A stretch of DNA of 32,000 nt from Haloferax volcanii DS2 (GTDB lineage Archaea > Halobacteriota > Halobacteria > Halobacteriales > Haloferacaceae), in contig NC_013967.1 in the NCBI RefSeq assembly GCF_000025685.1, forward strand, positions 90,001 to 122,000. The letters run 5' to 3'. Of this stretch, positions 5,156 to 32,000 are shown piece by piece. The notes beneath the pieces are model-generated. The model had not been told where the DNA came from and made no database searches. It was given only the letters and a program-made list of their open reading frames with translations. Made by a program: the position numbers and the translations under genes. How positions within the stretch are numbered: position 1 is the first letter of the stretch; every line of letters begins with the position of its first letter.

Positions 5156-5359
5156 ATGACCTCCGAACCGTGCGACGCCTGCGGGAAGGGCGTCCGCATC
5201 GCCGGCGGCATCGGCGACCTCTGGAACTTCCCCACCTCCTCGTCCGGCGGGATGACGCTGGAACTCGTCGACGGCTCCGAACACTTCCTCTGTTTCGACT
5301 GCATGGAGCGACTCCCGGGCGACCGCGAACCGACGGCCGAGGACGTGGCGGCGCTTTAG
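5156..5359 (+). CDS. small zinc-ribbon protein (67 aa)
   Basis: This is the 3' end of track ORF 4370..5359. The ATG at 5156 gives MTSEPCDACGKGVRIAGG...HFLCFDCMERLPGDREPTAEDVAAL, with two CxxC pairs (CDAC, CFDC). A weak T-rich box GCTTTTGC lies about 27 nt upstream. Confidence 0.7.
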   Translation: MTSEPCDACGKGVRIAGGIGDLWNFPTSSSGGMTLELVDGSEHFLCFDCMERLPGDREPTAEDVAAL

Positions 5360-5440
5360 GCTCCGATTTCTCGGCCTTGTCGATGCCGCGACCGCACCCC
5401 GGAGCGGTGGATTTAGGCCCGTCCGAGGACTCCATTGACC

Positions 5441-7351
5441 GTGGACCCGTCGCGCATCATCGACTCGTTTCCGGCCCCCAGTTTCCGCGGCGCGCAAGAG
5501 CGGGCCCTGCGCGACATTCGCGACGCCTTCGCCGACGGCAACGACGTGGTCTTGGTCCGCGCGCCGACCGGGAGCGGCAAGTCGCTTCTCGCCCGCGCCA
5601 TCGCGGGGTCGGCGGCGACCGTGGACGAGACTTCGCCCGCGCAGGCGACCGACGCCTACTACACGACTCCGCAGGTGTCGCAACTGGACGACGTGGCCGA
5701 AGACGACCTGCTTTCGGACCTCAAAATAATCCGCGGCAAGTCCAACTACAACTGCATCATCCGCGGCGAGGAAGACACGCCGGTCGACCGCGCCCCCTGC
5801 GCCCGCAAGCGCGGCTTCGACTGCTCGGTTCGGCACCGCTGTCCGTACTTCTCCGACCGCGCCATCGCCTCGAACCGCCAAATCGCGGCGATGACGCTCG
5901 CGTACTTCATGCAGACCGCCGGCTCCGACGTGTTCCGAAAGCGCGACGTGGTCGTCGTCGACGAGGCCCACGGACTGGCCGAGTGGGCCGAGATGTACGC
6001 GACTATCGACCTGAAACCCCGGACCGTCCCGGTGTGGGACGACATCGGCGTCCCCGACGTGGCGGCCGCGGGCGACCCCGTCGAGCGCGCCTCGCGCTTC
6101 GCGGAGACGCTCGTCGGCGTCTGCAAGCGTGAGAAAGACGAGCTGCTGACGAAGTCCGAACTGATGCCCGAGGAGGCCGCCCGCCGCGACCGCTTACAGG
6201 AGCTCATCGGCGAGCTGAACTGGTTCGTGGAGGACTACCGCGACCCCCAGAGCCCGACGACGTGGGTCGTCGACCAGCACGACGGCGAGGGGTCGCCCAT
6301 CGCCATCAAGCCGCTCGACCCCGCGAAGTACCTCAAACACACCGTCTGGGACCGCGGAAACAAGTTCGCGCTCCTGTCTGCGACCATCCTCAACAAGGCG
6401 GCGTTCTGCCGCTCGGTCGGCCTCGACCCCTCGAAGGTCGCGCTCGTGGACGTCGAACACACCTTCCCCGTCGAGAACCGGCCGCTGTACGACGTGACGC
6501 AGGGGAAGATGACCTACGAGCACCGCGACGAGACGCTGCCCAAAATCGCCCGCCTCGTCGTTCGCCTGATGGCGAAACATCCCGACGAGAAGGGGTTGAT
6601 TCACTGCCACTCGTATGCGATTCAGGCGGAGCTTCGCCGCCGACTCGCCGAGATGGGCCTCGGCAACCGCGTCCGCGGCCACGACCGCGACGACCGAAAC
6701 GCGGAACTGGAGACGTGGAAGGCGACCGACCGCCCGGAGGTGTTCCTCTCGGTGAAGATGGAGGAGGCGCTGGACCTGAACGGCGACCTCTGTCGCTGGC
6801 AGGTGCTCTGCAAAGCGCCGTATCTCAACACGAACGACTCCAGAGTCGCCCGCCGCCTCGAAGACGGCCAGTGGGCGTGGTACCGCCGCGCCGCCCTCCG
6901 AACCGTGATTCAGGCCTGCGGCCGGGTCGTGCGCGCGCCCGACGACTACGGCGACACCTACGTCGCCGACAGCAGTCTGCTGCAACTGTTCGACAAGACG
7001 CGGACCGACATGCCCGACTGGTTCGCGGCGCAGGTCGACCGGATGACGAAACCCGACCTCCCCGAGTTCGACCCCGTCGTGGCGGGCGGCCGCGGGAGCA
7101 ACGCGGGCAACGCAACCGGCGGGACCGCGAATCTCGGCGGTTCGACGGGTCGGTCGCGAGGAGCGTCGGGTTCCGGCTCCGACTCGCGGCGCGACTCGAC
7201 TCGCGGTTCGAGGTCCGCTGGGAGTCGCGCGGGCGGCTCCGGCGGTACGTCGTCCGGCGGTTCCGACGGCCGCGAGACCGGTGGCTCGGACGGGAGCGCT
7301 GACGACAGCGGCCGGAGCAGTCACCCGCTTTCCGACGTGTGGGGTGAGTGA
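5441..7351 (+). CDS. XPD/Rad3 (DinG-like) superfamily-2 DNA helicase with Fe-S cluster domain and a Gly/Ser/Arg-rich tail
   Basis: Track ORF 5435..7351. Walker A is APTGSGKS and the DEAH box is VVVDEAHGL. Four Cys lie between them (NYNCI..APCARKRGFDCSVRHRCPYF), as in XPD Fe-S helicases. C-terminal helicase motifs include LLSATI and QACGRVVR. Start is either TTG 5435 or GTG 5441. The ATTTAGG box (5411-5417) fits a leaderless start at 5441. Confidence 0.9.
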   Translation: MDPSRIIDSFPAPSFRGAQERALRDIRDAFADGNDVVLVRAPTGSGKSLLARAIAGSAATVDETSPAQATDAYYTTPQVSQLDDVAEDDLLSDLKIIRGKSNYNCIIRGEEDTPVDRAPCARKRGFDCSVRHRCPYFSDRAIASNRQIAAMTLAYFMQTAGSDVFRKRDVVVVDEAHGLAEWAEMYATIDLKPRTVPVWDDIGVPDVAAAGDPVERASRFAETLVGVCKREKDELLTKSELMPEEAARRDRLQELIGELNWFVEDYRDPQSPTTWVVDQHDGEGSPIAIKPLDPAKYLKHTVWDRGNKFALLSATILNKAAFCRSVGLDPSKVALVDVEHTFPVENRPLYDVTQGKMTYEHRDETLPKIARLVVRLMAKHPDEKGLIHCHSYAIQAELRRRLAEMGLGNRVRGHDRDDRNAELETWKATDRPEVFLSVKMEEALDLNGDLCRWQVLCKAPYLNTNDSRVARRLEDGQWAWYRRAALRTVIQACGRVVRAPDDYGDTYVADSSLLQLFDKTRTDMPDWFAAQVDRMTKPDLPEFDPVVAGGRGSNAGNATGGTANLGGSTGRSRGASGSGSDSRRDSTRGSRSAGSRAGGSGGTSSGGSDGRETGGSDGSADDSGRSSHPLSDVWGE

Positions 7352-29673: not shown

Positions 29674-30096
29674 TTAGCGGTCGTTCGGGTCGACCGGCCG
29701 CCCCTCTTCGGTCGGCGGCGCGATGTAGTCGATGACCTCGTCGACGGAGGGGTCGCGGACGGTCACGTGCACTTCGATGTCACCGAGTTCGTCGGGGTTA
29801 CCGACGGAGAAGTTGACGACGCCCTTGAACGCGGCCTGCTTTTTCAGCGCGAACGAGAAGCCGTCGTCGTCGCGGCGCTTTGCGAACTCGCGGCGGGCGG
29901 TGTCGAGGATGGCCTGCTCGTGGAGGCGTTCGGAGAAGCGCTCCAGCTCGTGGGCCTCGCCGACGAGCTGTCCGGGTTCGTGGTCGAGTTCGACGCCGGG
30001 GAAGATGTTCTCGACGGCGTCGCCGACGCGGTCGGTGACCTCGGTGTCGCGGACGGGCACCTCGATGCGGACGTCGACGCTGTAAATCATGCTCAC
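29674..30096 (-). CDS. UPF0201-family predicted RNA-binding protein
   Basis: 140 aa: MSMIYSVDVRIEVPVRDTEVTDRV... Its start overlaps the upstream UPF0200-type kinase gene by 4 nt, the usual archaeal pairing. Confidence 0.75.
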   Translation of the reverse strand: MSMIYSVDVRIEVPVRDTEVTDRVGDAVENIFPGVELDHEPGQLVGEAHELERFSERLHEQAILDTARREFAKRRDDDGFSFALKKQAAFKGVVNFSVGNPDELGDIEVHVTVRDPSVDEVIDYIAPPTEEGRPVDPNDR

Positions 30097-30662
30097 GCGT
30101 CGGCCTCCGCGAGCGCTTCCGGCCCCTCTTCGAACAGCTTCGTGATGGTTTCGCGGTACTCAGCCAGCGTGCCGGTGTTCTGGATGACCACGTCGGCGCG
30201 GTCCATCGCGTCGCCCATCCCGAAGTCGAGTTCGCGGCGTTCGCGCTTTTTGAGCGCCTCTACGTCGGTGTCGCTGTCGTCGCGGTCGCGGTCGAGCAGG
30301 CGCTCGGCGCGCGTCTCGAACGGCGCTTCGACGCTCACGAGGACGAAGTCGTCGCCGAACGCCTCGCGGAAACGGTCGAGTTCGACGCCCGACCGAAGCC
30401 CGTCGACGAGCACCACGTCGTTCGATTCGAGGTGCTGTTCGACCATCGGCAGCGAGCGCGCCGCGATGGCGTCGTCGCCCTCCTCCTCGCGGAGCGCGGT
30501 CGCTATCTTCCCGTGGTCCGTCGCGGGGTCGAGGCCGCGCTTGCGACACTCCTCGCGGATGACGTCGCCCATCGTCACGACGGGTACGCCCGCGTTGCGG
30601 GCCACCTCGGCGAGCTCGCCCTTGCCGCTTCCCGGCAGGCCGACCGTCCCGATGACTCTCAT
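30093..30662 (-). CDS. UPF0200-family P-loop nucleotide kinase-like protein (often annotated dephospho-CoA kinase-like)
   Basis: Track ORF 30093..30704. The ATG at 30662 gives MRVIGTVGLPGSGKGE (Walker A). A GCTTTAAC box lies about 28 nt upstream. Confidence 0.8.
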   Translation of the reverse strand: MRVIGTVGLPGSGKGELAEVARNAGVPVVTMGDVIREECRKRGLDPATDHGKIATALREEEGDDAIAARSLPMVEQHLESNDVVLVDGLRSGVELDRFREAFGDDFVLVSVEAPFETRAERLLDRDRDDSDTDVEALKKRERRELDFGMGDAMDRADVVIQNTGTLAEYRETITKLFEEGPEALAEADA

Positions 30663-30801
30663 AGCCGGTGTTACCGCGTTGGCGCTGTTAAAGCCTCCCT
30701 TCACGTCGCTCCGGGTGGCGGGTTTCGCCGGTTCCCTTCACCCCGCTCCACCTCACCTCGACCACCCCGCTGCTTTTCGCCTCGGCCCGCGTACTACGCC
30801 T

Positions 30802-31179
30802 ATGTCTCAGCGCTCGTTCGTCGTCCGCGCCCTCTGGTTCGTCTTCGTCGGCTGGTGGGCGACGCCCGCCGTCGTCAACGTCGCGTGGTTCCTGAACGCG
30901 ACCGTCATCGGCATCCCGCTCGGCGTCGCGCTCATCAACCTCGTGCCGACGGTGCTCTCGTTGAAGGAGCCGAAAACCCGGCTCGACCCCGACTCGGGCC
31001 GCGGCCAGCGGTCGGTCGTCGTCCGCGCCGTCTACTTCGTGTTCGTCGGCTGGTGGCTGAGCTGGGTCTGGGCGAACGTGGCGGTGCTGTTCACGCTCAC
31101 CATCGTCGGCCTCCCGGTCGGCATCTGGATGCTCAACCGGCTCCCCGCGGTCACGTCGCTGTATCGGTTCGACGGGTAG
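30802..31179 (+). CDS. YccF-domain inner membrane protein (two DUF307 repeats)
   Basis: This is the 3' end of track ORF 29767..31179. The ATG at 30802 gives MSQRSFVVRALWFVFVGWWATP...VVRAVYFVFVGWWLSWVW (an internal duplication). A CTTTTC box is centred 27 nt upstream. Confidence 0.8.
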   Translation: MSQRSFVVRALWFVFVGWWATPAVVNVAWFLNATVIGIPLGVALINLVPTVLSLKEPKTRLDPDSGRGQRSVVVRAVYFVFVGWWLSWVWANVAVLFTLTIVGLPVGIWMLNRLPAVTSLYRFDG

Positions 31180-31188
31180 AACCCGATT

Positions 31189-31200
31189 CGTTTTTCTTGC
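31189..31200 (+). promoter_or_regulatory. T-rich TATA-like box upstream of tRNA-Arg
   Basis: CGTTTTTCTTGC is centred about 29 nt upstream of tRNA position 1 (31223). Confidence 0.4.
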
Positions 31201-31222
31201 AGGGACGGTTTGTGGGCATCGA

Positions 31223-31296
31223 GGGCGCGTAGCTCAGTCGGACAGAGCGTCGGACTTCTAATCCGATGGTCGCGGGTTCGAATCCCGTCGCGCTCG
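31223..31296 (+). tRNA. tRNA-Arg (anticodon UCU)
   Basis: Manual cloverleaf: acceptor GGGCGCG/CGCGCTC (one G-U pair); D arm GCTC-AGTCGGACA-GAGC; anticodon arm TCGGA-CTTCTAA-TCCGA (anticodon TCT); variable loop TGGTC; T arm GCGGG-TTCGAAT-CCCGT; discriminator G. 74 nt, with no encoded CCA and no intron. Confidence 0.95.
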
Positions 31297-31371
31297 CTCG
31301 GCCGGAGGCCTCGCTCGCGCGACGGACATCGCAAACGCTTCGCGTTTGCTCAATCCCGTCGCGCTCTTTTC
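31274..31371 (+). repeat. 98-nt direct repeat, copy 1 (tRNA-Arg T-loop and 3' end plus structured trailer ending in a T-tract)
   Basis: Identical to 31455-31552 except T31288 versus C31469. Alignment done by eye with an offset of 181 nt. Confidence 0.95.
31367..31370 (+). terminator. oligo-T tract after the hairpin of repeat copy 1 (a second one lies at 31548-31551)
   Basis: TCTTTTC immediately follows the 9-bp plus 8-bp hairpin. Oligo-T is the archaeal termination signal. Confidence 0.4.
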
Positions 31372-31442
31372 GTTGCTGAAACCCCCGAGTGGTAGCGAGA
31401 CGTGTGGGAACGCCACGCGCGGGATTCGAATCAGGGAGCAAC
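31372..31442 (+). pseudogene. 71-nt tRNA-like relic (degenerate cloverleaf)
   Basis: A 6-bp acceptor-like stem pairs GTTGCT with AGCAAC. AGTGGTAG is D-loop-like. TTCGAAT falls exactly at tRNA positions 54-60. The T-stem and anticodon arm do not pair properly. Confidence 0.45.
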
Positions 31443-31454
31443 TTGTTGCGACTG

Positions 31455-31552
31455 GGGTTCGAATCCCGCCGCGCTCGCTCGGCCGGAGGCCTCGCTCGCG
31501 CGACGGACATCGCAAACGCTTCGCGTTTGCTCAATCCCGTCGCGCTCTTTTC
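31455..31552 (+). repeat. 98-nt direct repeat, copy 2
   Basis: 97/98 identical to 31274-31371. It lacks a matching 5' tRNA half. Confidence 0.95.
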
Positions 31553-31709
31553 CTTGCGGTAGACCGCCGAGCGACGGCATCGGCGGCCCCACCTACTCCT
31601 GTCCTGAGCGGGTTCTGTTCTCGACGACTATGGGGCTTGACCTCGGATACGTGTGACCTACAAGTTAGGATGACAACATTTTTCGGTCGAGCGGCGCGAA
31701 ACGCCCCGC

Positions 31710-31985
31710 ATGGACGTTCTCGGCATCGTCGCCGCGGCGGTCGTCTTCGGCGTCGCCGCCTACAATCTCGTGACGAGCCTCGACGGCCGATTCGCGAGAC
31801 TCCTGTTCGGGTGTCTGGGCGTCGTCGCCGCGACGCTCTACGTCATCGAACAGTTCGGACTCGCGGCGTCGCTCGGACTGAACGTCGCTCACGGCCTCCA
31901 ATTCGTCGCGGCCCTGCTCGTGGTCTCGGCGCTGGTCGATTTCCTCGCCCGGCGCGCCGAGGCGGGCGATTCCGGGTCGTCGTGA
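31710..31985 (+). CDS. small membrane protein (3 predicted TM helices), unknown function
   Basis: 91-aa ORF: MDVLGIVAAAVVFGVAAYNLV...LLFGCLGVVAATLYVI...LQFVAALLVVSALVDFL. An ACATTTTTC box lies about 30 nt upstream. Confidence 0.6.
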   Translation: MDVLGIVAAAVVFGVAAYNLVTSLDGRFARLLFGCLGVVAATLYVIEQFGLAASLGLNVAHGLQFVAALLVVSALVDFLARRAEAGDSGSS

Positions 31986-32000
31986 ACGCCGCGACTCCCC

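Follow-up and report, generated by a model that had tools for sequence, protein, structure and literature searches.

tRNA-matched repeat cassettes behind haloarchaeal tRNA genes, as seen at the tRNA-Arg(UCU) locus of Haloferax volcanii

Layout and strain variation of the tRNA-Arg(UCU) locus

The window, the whole 32,000-nt stretch of Haloferax volcanii DNA analysed here, contains an intact tRNA-Arg(UCU) gene and, in the intergenic region upstream of HVO_0131, which a YccF-family gene bounds on the other side, a 98-nt direct repeat whose first copy starts at the third base of the 5' T-stem strand of the tRNA (GCGGG, 31272-31276). The two copies, at 31274-31371 and 31455-31552, differ solely at T31288 versus C31469 and are separated by 83 nt; allowing one more mismatch, at 31372 (G versus C), lengthens the repeat to 103 nt. 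Its 181-nt period and the 99% identity of the copies resemble a recent duplication. The 15-mer AATCCCGYCGCGCTC, hereafter T, is the 3' strand of the tRNA and occurs exactly four times (at 31281, 31352, 31462 as a C variant, and 31533), against 0.02 occurrences expected from shuffled sequences. The second copy has no 5' tRNA half, and ARAGORN detects one tRNA only in the 32 kb. A first-pass annotation of this DNA had described the same anatomy, of nested tRNA 3'-end duplications with no integrase, no cargo and no 5' tRNA half at copy 2, and all its coordinates for the repeat, the tRNA, the 15-mers and the spacing hold on recheck.

The 98-nt repeat resolves into two 71-nt cassettes, each made of a 56-nt insert (I) and one T. 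Insert I consists, in order, of a linker with a small hairpin, a 9-nt exact reverse complement of T (T'), an internal loop and a near-invariant 8-bp hairpin (hpB; Table 1). Cassette copy 1 is placed between the functional tRNA and its oligo-T terminator, on the tRNA strand, and copy 2 behind a second cassette type (C) and beyond an oligo-T terminator. Cassette C is built of an inverted copy of the T-arm, an apical hairpin and another T, in that order, and forms a palindromic pseudo-T-arm; trailer 1 duplicates, in diverged form, the genuine trailer (31548 onwards). The RNA fold predicted for I+T has an energy of -36 kcal/mol (z = -4.0). Both the antisense copy T' and the palindromic module that supplies the T of copy 2 had been overlooked in the first-pass annotation.

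Table 1. Features of the tRNA-Arg(UCU) locus, in window coordinates
Feature	Position	Strand	Remarks
tRNA-Arg(UCU), intact	31223-31297	+	ARAGORN tRNA-Arg(TCT); Rfam RF00005, 73 bits
T1, AATCCCGTCGCGCTC	31281-31295	+	T-loop A58, 3' T-stem, 3' acceptor strand; the 15 nt ahead of the discriminator; proximal copy of the direct repeat of cassette I-1
Insert I, copy 1 (56 nt)	31296-31351	+	Covariance model, 79.3 bits
Hairpin A (GGCC-GGA-GGCC), insert copy 1	31300-31310	+	
T' (GCGCGACGG), insert copy 1	31317-31325	+	Reverse complement of CCGTCGCGC in T
hpB (GCAAACGC-TTC-GCGTTTGC), insert copy 1	31331-31349	+	
T1b	31352-31366	+	Distal copy of the direct repeat of cassette I-1; assembly L002 lacks exactly I + T1b (71 nt)
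Oligo-T (31367-31370), then trailer 1	31367-31418	+	Trailer 1 is the 5' part of the 110-nt C cassette
C module	31419-31476	+	Inverted repeat; long hairpin, -35 kcal/mol
Inverted T-arm copy (GCGGGATTCGAA) in C module	31419-31430	+	
Apical hairpin in C module	31431-31457	+	
T2 (GGGTTCGAATCCCGCCGCGCTC) in C module	31455-31476	+	C variant at 31469
Insert I, copy 2 (56 nt)	31477-31532	+	Covariance model, 78.7 bits
Hairpin A / T' / hpB, insert copy 2	31481-31491 / 31498-31506 / 31512-31530	+	
T3 (31533-31547), then oligo-T (31548-31551)	31533-31551	+	Followed by the genuine trailer hairpin CCGCCGA...TCGGCGG

The locus varies between H. volcanii strains and assemblies. Over 12.8 kb, assembly L002 matches the window at 100.000% identity apart from exactly these 71 nt, and among relatives with 95-100% identical flanks the locus is empty or holds I only, C only, C+I, I+C+delta-I or I+C+I. 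Every difference between these arrangements is bounded by T. Precise empty sites are found in L002 and L193, where deletion between T repeats would yield the same product as excision. Within the H. volcanii group all arrangements can be derived from I+C+I via deletions between T repeats, and no gain event is directly seen. Insert I exists as two alleles, each occurring at either position, the second with loop TCC and stem GTTTGT. The window carries the same allele at both positions, unlike relatives with the second allele at position 2, a pattern that fits an earlier suggestion of gene conversion or a recent event. Additionally, the locus is a recombination junction whose flanks have discordant phylogenies, other Haloferax species have partial T+TTTT fossils downstream, and draft assemblies of several relatives show N-joined duplicates here.

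Several identities for the repeated segment were considered and rejected. The T-arm palindrome accounts for a 10-bit Rfam hit to tmRNA (31419-31468), which is noise. The proximal T completes the tRNA, which also exists without the insert; the insert folds without a BHB (two 3-nt bulges, 4 bp apart) and is not an archaeal tRNA intron. Nor does copy 2 lead into a D arm or anticodon arm, as a permuted or split tRNA would. An H/ACA or C/D guide RNA is contradicted by the lack of an ACA box, C/D boxes and a K-turn and by an internal loop that is too small, a retroelement primer-binding site by the absence of TGG (the complement of CCA) before T', and a casposon-like 14-15-bp target duplication by the lack of terminal inverted repeats and of a casposase.

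A cassette family across Halobacteria

The 98-nt repeat very probably belongs to a family of cassettes in which a flanking repeat and an internal antisense copy both match the local tRNA. This family, found behind many haloarchaeal tRNA genes, is conserved and, as it seems, undescribed; a literature search by topic and by sequences returned no description of it. Scanning 185,579 genomes with a strict hairpin pattern yielded ~43 loci in Halobacteria, and a metagenome scan ~35 more, giving ~80 in total. The 12-mer that follows hpB is repeated 45-61 nt upstream, with at most two mismatches, at 30/44 haloarchaeal genome hits versus 0/36 non-haloarchaeal ones. The cassettes lie 28-440 nt downstream of tRNA-Arg(TCT), Arg(CCT), Ala(CGC), Ala(GGC), Pro(GGG), Lys(TTT) and Gly(TCC), and the layout T-linker-T'-hpB-T recurs in several families of Halobacteria, with colinear inserts of 56-90 nt in related loci of many genera. 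Each species genome has one or two exact-pattern copies of the hairpin, the strict pattern leaving variant hairpins outside the scan. The first-pass annotation had held that the same 98-mer behind many unrelated genes would make it a generic dispersed repeat: the hairpin core is indeed dispersed, but it is nearly always linked to a tRNA, and the flanking repeat varies with that tRNA.

Across the family the module is 84-100% identical where its flanks are 50-80% identical. Among six Natrialbaceae genera, I+T is 84-99% identical, compared with 57-72% upstream and 50-71% downstream, and conservation far above that of the flanks is also found at syntenic tuf-rps10-tRNA-Ala loci. The insert of the window is 100% identical to that of H. 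larsenii, H. marisrubri and H. chudinovii, and 98% to that of Haloferax sp. Q22; in H. larsenii, the most divergent Haloferax compared, the leader is 90% and the downstream sequence 49% identical. This contrast between insert and flanks, together with covariation of T' with the tRNA, fits an earlier proposal of selection on the repeated element.

T' always corresponds to the local tRNA, whether at Arg loci (GCGCGACGG, CGGGCACGATG, CGCGGCG, GCGTGCCG), Ala loci (TGGACTCGCCG, TGGACTCGCTG), or Pro (GACCGCCG), Lys (CCGACG) and Gly (TGCGCCG) loci. Pairing reaches 82% between the proximal T and T' and 75% between T' and the distal T, versus 23-40% in slid controls, and double changes occur at seven pairs in each helix. 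The conserved hpB has a single covarying pair, a free position that is GC in 15 cases, CG in 11, AU in one and UA in one. Transition mismatches between the proximal T and T' are A.C in 17/17 cases and never G.T, a pattern expected neither of an RNA read from the top strand nor under neutrality. The beta allele of hpB carries a top-strand G.T, so the evidence on the strand is mixed. Covariation and conservation would be expected equally for an RNA that functions in the host.

Solo cassettes away from tRNAs sit in short intergenic gaps, directly after stop codons. Their proximal T has a complete 3' end and their distal T retains only its first 8-14 nt, which is consistent with crossing over in the 5' portion of T and contradicts an IS200/IS605-like insertion 3' of a whole T. 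As no shared inheritance from a common ancestor of the Ala, Arg, Pro, Lys and Gly tRNAs is possible, we infer that the module must have moved between tRNA genes.

Possible mobile element or trailer RNA

Our best guess, to which we give a probability of roughly 0.45, is that these are non-autonomous cassettes that target tRNA 3' ends, recombine within T and are transcribed as a stable trailer hairpin. As the mechanism we suggest single-strand fold-back recombination, a tentative choice at distinctly less than even odds. The cassettes would be non-autonomous DNA modules with their recombination site within T. In a single-stranded state T' and T would fold back on each other with hpB at the tip, recreating the duplex of a tRNA 3' end; if one strand were exchanged in T with a chromosomal tRNA end and the product replicated, the outcome would be precisely T-linker-T'-hpB-T. 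Loss, the only step directly seen, could proceed via recombination between T copies or slippage. The complementarity of T' and T is perhaps kept by selection for fold-back or by quasipalindrome template switching, and a resident cassette would be co-transcribed with the tRNA to give a very stable trailer hairpin before the terminator. The boldest version, a new minimal mobile element, is rather unlikely: a cargo-free hairpin of 70-110 nt, in which T' and T are a fold-back copy of the element's own target, would enter and leave as a folded single strand via a putative haloarchaeal recombinase, and its specificity would be rewritten for each tRNA by templated correction of the hairpin arms.

To our knowledge, no recombinase acts on such a site. 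No recurrent recombinase or transposase was found in the 8-kb flanks of 44 related loci, where no candidate gene is linked to the cassettes. Two further points speak against the mobile reading: one or two copies per genome, as counted with the strict pattern, are few for an active repeat family, and a crossover within T at a new tRNA species would give a chimeric acceptor strand.

The main rival, also unlikely on our estimate, is that I+T is selected as RNA in the host. After tRNase Z cleavage it would form a minihelix-like hairpin in which paired T' and T, capped by hpB, imitate the acceptor stem stacked on the T stem, serving as a terminator or stability hairpin, a processing signal or a stable small RNA of the tRF-1 type, and its copy number would shift passively through homologous recombination or slippage between T copies. 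The position of copy 1 between tRNA and oligo-T on the tRNA strand (31296-31366, then TTTT at 31367-31370), the strong and specific predicted fold, the covariation of T' and hpB, and conservation far exceeding that of the flanks, both in Haloferax and at the tuf-rps10-tRNA-Ala loci, all favour such a role, and solo copies right after stop codons occupy a useful spot for a terminator hairpin. The only precedent for a discrete trailer is the stable ~60-nt tRNA-His 3' trailer that accumulates in H. volcanii (PMC3495736). However, the cassette is dispensable, since copy 1 is missing or the tRNA end is empty in strains that are otherwise nearly identical; copy 2 lies beyond the oligo-T terminator; and one module behind unrelated tRNAs still requires spreading at the DNA level. 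Pairing of the proximal T with T', which is better kept than that of T' with the distal T, would compete with the tRNA fold and includes zero G.U pairs. No Rfam family covers the element: Rfam 15 returned only tRNA at E <= 1 in 30000-32000, and only tRNA at the gathering threshold in nine related loci.

The first-pass annotation had framed the duplications as attL/attR scars. On such a reading, repeated integration and imprecise loss of tyrosine-integrase elements, of the SNJ2 type or similar, would have left tandem att cores with arm remnants between them. The 15-nt tRNA 3'-distal duplication does match the 14-bp cores of haloarchaeal SNJ2-type integrases (PMC5861418), and both the T+TTTT fossils and the discordant flank phylogenies would suit such a history. 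Yet the ORFs of the window and 10 kb beyond are housekeeping genes with no integrase or cargo, and no integrase or cargo recurs in related loci. No homologue turned up among haloviruses; BLAST of the region and of an Ala-type module against phages (50,697 records) and plasmids returned only tRNA and chance matches and tRNA arrays of a Natribaculum megaplasmid, and the IMG/VR pattern scan only two unrelated low-GC terminators (chance hairpins). Independent deletions would leave random remnants, not one colinear insert of 56-90 nt that recurs in many genera of several families and at seven or eight different tRNAs. The insert is, moreover, conserved far more strongly than its flanks and has an internal antisense copy that covaries with the tRNA. 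With neither an integrase or cargo nor a homologue in viruses, plasmids or Rfam turning up in the searches, the att-scar reading in its simple form is unsupported, and we consider it improbable.

That the repeat is a tandem duplication private to this strain, or an artefact of assembly, with no wider meaning is hardly credible: the period and identity of the copies look recent and draft assemblies of relatives contain N-joined duplicates, but the independent NCBI assembly L001 is identical in sequence, the junction left by the 71-nt difference in L002 spans a 15-mer shorter than the assembler word size and so should exist in the reads, cassette variants recur in many other assemblies and in metagenomes, and the family is seen at ~80 loci; these comparisons already contradict it.

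Viruses and plasmids of archaea classically land at tRNA 3' ends. A cassette that is conserved and free of cargo, copies its landing site in both orientations and comes and goes between near-identical strains would be new on either reading, whether as a minimal site-specific element of a new type or as structured tRNA trailer RNA of a new class. Natural empty, single and double alleles make the question directly testable in H. volcanii, the main haloarchaeal model organism, which has established genetics, small-RNA methods and assays of polyploid gene conversion. Additionally, such tRNA-adjacent repeats will confuse the prediction of att sites and proviruses in haloarchaea.

Likeness to known systems

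The cassettes share with SNJ2-type att duplications a direct duplication of ~15 nt of the tRNA 3' end, an intact tRNA and repeat arrays at one tRNA. They differ in having only 56-110 nt between repeats, no integrase or cargo, a unit conserved across families, an antisense copy of the core, and no cognate attP found in viruses or plasmids.

Integron attC sites and the CTX-phi attP(+) site used by XerCD are likewise imperfect inverted repeats with an internal unpaired region that fold into a duplex recombination site, and integration of a folded strand followed by replication would yield T-linker-T'-hairpin-T. An inverted repeat that recreates a duplex target upon folding is present in the cassettes, with T' and T 75-82% paired and double changes at 7 pairs. 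By contrast, the hpB arms (GCAAAC/GTTTGC) and T fit neither attC cores (RYYYAAC / GTTRRRY) nor dif-like XerCD half-sites; the cassette mimics a tRNA end and not dif or attI, its cargo is essentially nil and no recombinase was found. The resemblance is one of logic only.

REP/REPIN sequences and IS200/IS605-derived MITEs (PATEs) are also short, non-coding, extragenic hairpin repeats, and a conserved stem suggests recognition by a protein. In IS608 a guide pairs with the cleavage site; likewise, the cassettes have a sequence, on the 5' side of the hairpin foot, that pairs with a site in the flank. The cassettes, however, are flanked on both sides by a 12-16-nt tRNA-specific direct repeat, their 'guide' of 6-12 nt changes with the tRNA, their copy number per genome is low, and solo copies retain the proximal and not the distal T. 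We know of no Y1 transposase or RAYT partner for them.

Stable tRNA 3' trailers and minihelices (tRF-1, mascRNA-type RNAs and the tRNA-His trailer) differ from the cassettes: the cassette stem is a plain Watson-Crick complement, for example with A3:U70 in place of the G3:U70 of tRNA-Ala, and thus not a faithful acceptor mimic, and the cassette is absent from close strains. What they have in common is a segment downstream of a tRNA that ends at an oligo-T and, in the predicted transcript, a 3' hairpin strand that equals the acceptor and T-stem strand.

Two cassettes behind tRNA-Arg(UCU)

The 98-nt direct repeat downstream of tRNA-Arg(UCU) in Haloferax volcanii consists of a modular hairpin cassette, conserved and of tRNA 3'-end derivation, that is resident in two copies. 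Direct reading bore out what the first-pass annotation had described, namely near-identical copies with a sole mismatch (T31288 versus C31469; the next falls at 31372) and four occurrences, against 0.02 expected, of the 15-mer AATCCCGYCGCGCTC, the tRNA 3' strand (T). Across the 10.3 kb that they have in common, the window does not differ from an independent NCBI assembly (L001).

Each copy runs T (15 nt), a 56-nt insert (I), T and TTTT, with I+T forming a 71-nt cassette. In order, I comprises hairpin A (GGCC-GGA-GGCC), an antisense of T (T', GCGCGACGG), ACATC, a perfect 8-bp hairpin (hpB, GCAAACGC-TTC-GCGTTTGC) and TC. The reverse complement of T', CCGTCGCGC, is found within T, and either the upstream or the downstream T is open to T' as a pairing partner; the trailer RNA I+T is predicted to fold through T':T and hpB at -36 kcal/mol (z = -4.0). 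Copy 2 is preceded by a palindromic pseudo-T-arm module (C) made of GCGGGATTCGAA, an apical hairpin and TTCGAATCCCGC (inverted repeat I10; -35 kcal/mol). Copy 2 thus takes its T from the 3' arm of this module, so that the T is no orphan; this explains the T-loop of copy 2 and its lack, as had been noticed, of a 5' tRNA half. The same palindrome produces a weak Rfam tmRNA match at 31419-31468 (10 bits, E = 0.21), which we rejected. A 51-nt repeat upstream is an internal two-domain duplication of a YccF-family membrane protein gene, with no relation to the tRNA repeat.

Features at the tRNA-Arg(UCU) locus, in window coordinates
Feature	Position	Details
YccF-family gene	30803-31179	
51-nt direct repeat	30808-30858 / 31006-31056	88% identity
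tRNA-Arg(TCT)	31223-31297	ARAGORN; Rfam tRNA 73 bits
Direct repeat	31274-31376 / 31455-31557	103 nt, 98% identity
15-mer (T)	31281-31295, 31352-31366, 31462-31476, 31533-31547	third with the C variant
C module, 5' arm	31419-31430	
C module, 3' arm	31458-31469	
HVO_0131	31710-31985	ORF

Cassette polymorphism among close relatives

Every cassette combination is present among the orthologous loci of close relatives, compared from the YccF-family gene to HVO_0131 with flanks 95-100% identical. A Logan assembly (L002) matches the window at 100.000% identity across 12.8 kb save for the copy-1 I+T, exactly 71 nt, which is missing, and a contig from a natural metagenome (L144) is arranged likewise. 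The 643-nt upstream flank is 100% identical between an empty locus (L193) and filled ones (L194, L195, L197). All locus states are derivable from I+C+I through deletions between T repeats; thus, cassettes are lost from this locus, and we infer that they are also gained.

Cassette content of orthologous loci
State	Locus	Intergenic length (nt)
Empty (tRNA-TTTTCG...)	L193, L196	278
I only	L199	349
C only	L200	403
C + I with 45-nt TCGC-microhomology deletion	L197, L198	418
C+I	L002	459
I+C+delta-I	L195	492
I+C+I	Window	530

Two alleles of I, alpha (loop TTC, stem GTTTGC) and beta (loop TCC, stem GTTTGT), are each found at both positions, the window carrying alpha twice. Thus, the 99% identity of its copies, for which a recent event, gene conversion or selection had been suggested, probably reflects constraint together with recent homogenisation.

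At the copy-2 position, the 45-nt deletion lies between two TCGC microhomologies; hpB and T are kept, and the linker and T' are gone. It is identical in L195, L197 and L198, three assemblies differing in cassette content. Flank similarities across L193-L200 are discordant (L197, for example, matches the L193 group at 100% upstream but resembles the window downstream), so that a recombination breakpoint between Haloferax lineages seems to lie at the tRNA-Arg(UCU) locus. Downstream of the cassette, H. gibbonsii, H. massiliensis and H. prahovense (L081, L076, L068) carry ~25-nt tandem units, (C)CGTCGCGCTCTTTTGATGTCTGCT, consisting of acceptor strand plus oligo-T. Several drafts contain N-joined tRNA duplicates with and without the insert, which may represent mixed alleles in the sequenced cultures.

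A cassette family across Halobacteria

Comparison of genomes indicates that the 98-nt repeat is a family member and no private duplication. The first example at a second tRNA, found by BLAST against plasmids, was tRNA-Lys(TTT) in a tRNA array of the Natribaculum breve megaplasmid, where the layout is identical, the insert homologous, a G-C pair of hpB has become A-T through compensatory change, and the terminal repeat is that of the Lys tRNA. This dense array (CP095391.1, 637 kb; L003:4368-6774) has at least 14 tRNA genes and one cassette, and at least one further T-arm/acceptor fragment (~5820-5845) was seemingly missed by ARAGORN.

Scanning for hpB and its immediate flanks gave 81 loci in genomes (one per species), ~43 of them in Halobacteria (ten Haloferax loci from nine species, many Natrialbaceae, Halorhabdus, Haloarcula, Halovenus, Natronoarchaeum and Saliphagus), and 103 metagenome contigs, ~35 haloarchaeal. 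The 12-mer 3' of hpB is repeated 45-61 nt upstream (≤2 mismatches) in 30 of 44 haloarchaeal versus 0 of 36 non-haloarchaeal genome matches. Upstream of the matches, at 28-440 nt, lie tRNAs Arg(TCT), Arg(CCT), Ala(CGC), Ala(GGC), Pro(GGG), Lys(TTT), Gly(TCC) and, weakly, Ser(TGA). Two arrangements recur, tRNA-I-T-trailer and tRNA-trailer-C-T-I-T-trailer, as does their combination, of which the window is one case. C is also conserved, its inverted arm tracking the local T-arm (GCGGGATTCGAA in Arg, GCCGGGATTTGAA or GCTGGGATTTGAA in Ala variants).

In a set of metagenome contigs (L105, L108, L111 and ~15 others; GC 0.54-0.58), the exact pattern additionally picks out a non-haloarchaeal soil lineage, in which GCTGCGGTGATA follows a conserved hairpin, as well as clustered loci of Vibrio and Aggregatibacter. 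The tRNA-end repeat is absent at both sets, which appear unrelated to the family.

Across 28 distinct units in alignment A2, T' pairs with the proximal T at 82% and with the distal T at 75%, against 23-40% in slid controls, and seven pairs in each helix have changed on both sides. T' tracks the local tRNA, being GCGCGACGG, CGGGCACGATG, CGCGGCG or GCGTGCCG at Arg, TGGACTCGCCG at Ala (TGGACTCGCTG when the T-stem has A), GACCGCCG at Pro, CCGACG at Lys and TGCGCCG at Gly. The two hpB pairs that the search pattern left free are paired in all units, one varying as GC15/CG11/AU1/UA1. In the 32-kb window, a covariance model built from A2 found the two copies and nothing else (79.3 and 78.7 bits).

At syntenic tuf-rps10-tRNA-Ala(CGC) loci of six Natrialbaceae genera, I+T identity is 84-99%, and flank identity is 57-72% (upstream 300 nt) and 50-71% (downstream 200 nt). 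I is 100% identical to the window in H. larsenii, H. marisrubri and H. chudinovii and 98% in Haloferax sp. Q22; against the first two, identity is 90-93% for the leader and 49-63% for the sequence downstream. Such a pattern is not what neutral scars would show.

Origin and mechanism

The family appears undescribed: it matched nothing in Rfam, and searches by topic and by sequence string found no description in the searchable literature. As Ala, Arg, Pro, Lys and Gly tRNAs lack a recent common ancestor, the module has apparently been copied between tRNA genes, with T and T' re-specified each time. The most likely mechanism, at a probability of about 0.35-0.4, is fold-back single-strand exchange. 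In a folded single strand, T':T pairing would recreate the target duplex; one exchange between chromosomal T and this strand, then replication, would give the order T-linker-T'-hairpin-T. Loss would proceed by T x T recombination, and either selection or quasipalindrome template switching could keep T' corrected. A difficulty for this model is that first integration at a new tRNA would be expected to disrupt the acceptor strand.

Solo copies occur in short gaps 3' of stop codons, away from any tRNA. Their proximal T is whole at its 3' end, beginning at (T)CCCGG, and their distal T is reduced to its first 8-14 nt. These ends fit crossing-over within the 5' portion of T and argue against simple insertion after a whole T. 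An hpB preceded by a hairpin-A-like GACC-GGA-GGTC, without tRNA context, occurs in Natronococcus pandeyae (two copies) and a Natrialbaceae MAG (L040, L049, L086). In L040, at 5351-5382 (-) and neighbouring positions, the hairpin sits beside an orc1/cdc6 gene, with an AT-rich stretch and three repeats of ACACATCGATAGAGGGGT also adjacent, a setting that looks like a replication origin.

The main rival, a host-functional trailer RNA, is only slightly less probable. Copy 1 appears positioned for co-transcription before oligo-T, the predicted fold is very stable, and H. volcanii accumulates a ~60-nt tRNA-His trailer (PMC3495736). Among transition-type mismatches in the proximal T:T' helix (44 units, at least 8 positions), A.C occurs 17 times and G.T never, an asymmetry predicted neither by top-strand RNA nor by neutrality; it would fit bottom-strand folding, although beta-allele hpB has a top-strand G.T that runs counter to this. 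The mobile-cassette and trailer-RNA readings are compatible, and both mechanism and function are directly testable in H. volcanii.

The attL/attR-like scar first proposed is not supported, given the conservation described, no integrase in the 10 kb past the window end (450 nt from the repeat; read in L001, encoding Hfq-like, KH and RIO1 proteins, eIF-1A and an aminoacyl-tRNA synthetase), no recurrent recombinase in the flanks of related loci, and a search for a cognate attP that, Natribaculum tRNA arrays and isolated hairpins aside, found no cassette homologue among 50,697 phage records, IMG/VR and plasmids. SNJ2-type integrases use 14-bp cores in tRNA 3'-distal regions (PMC5861418); thus, the 15-nt T is att-like in size, but the window repeat has no other trait of an integrated element. 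Fold-back exchange would instead resemble CTX-phi attP(+) and integron attC in its logic of folded-strand exchange.
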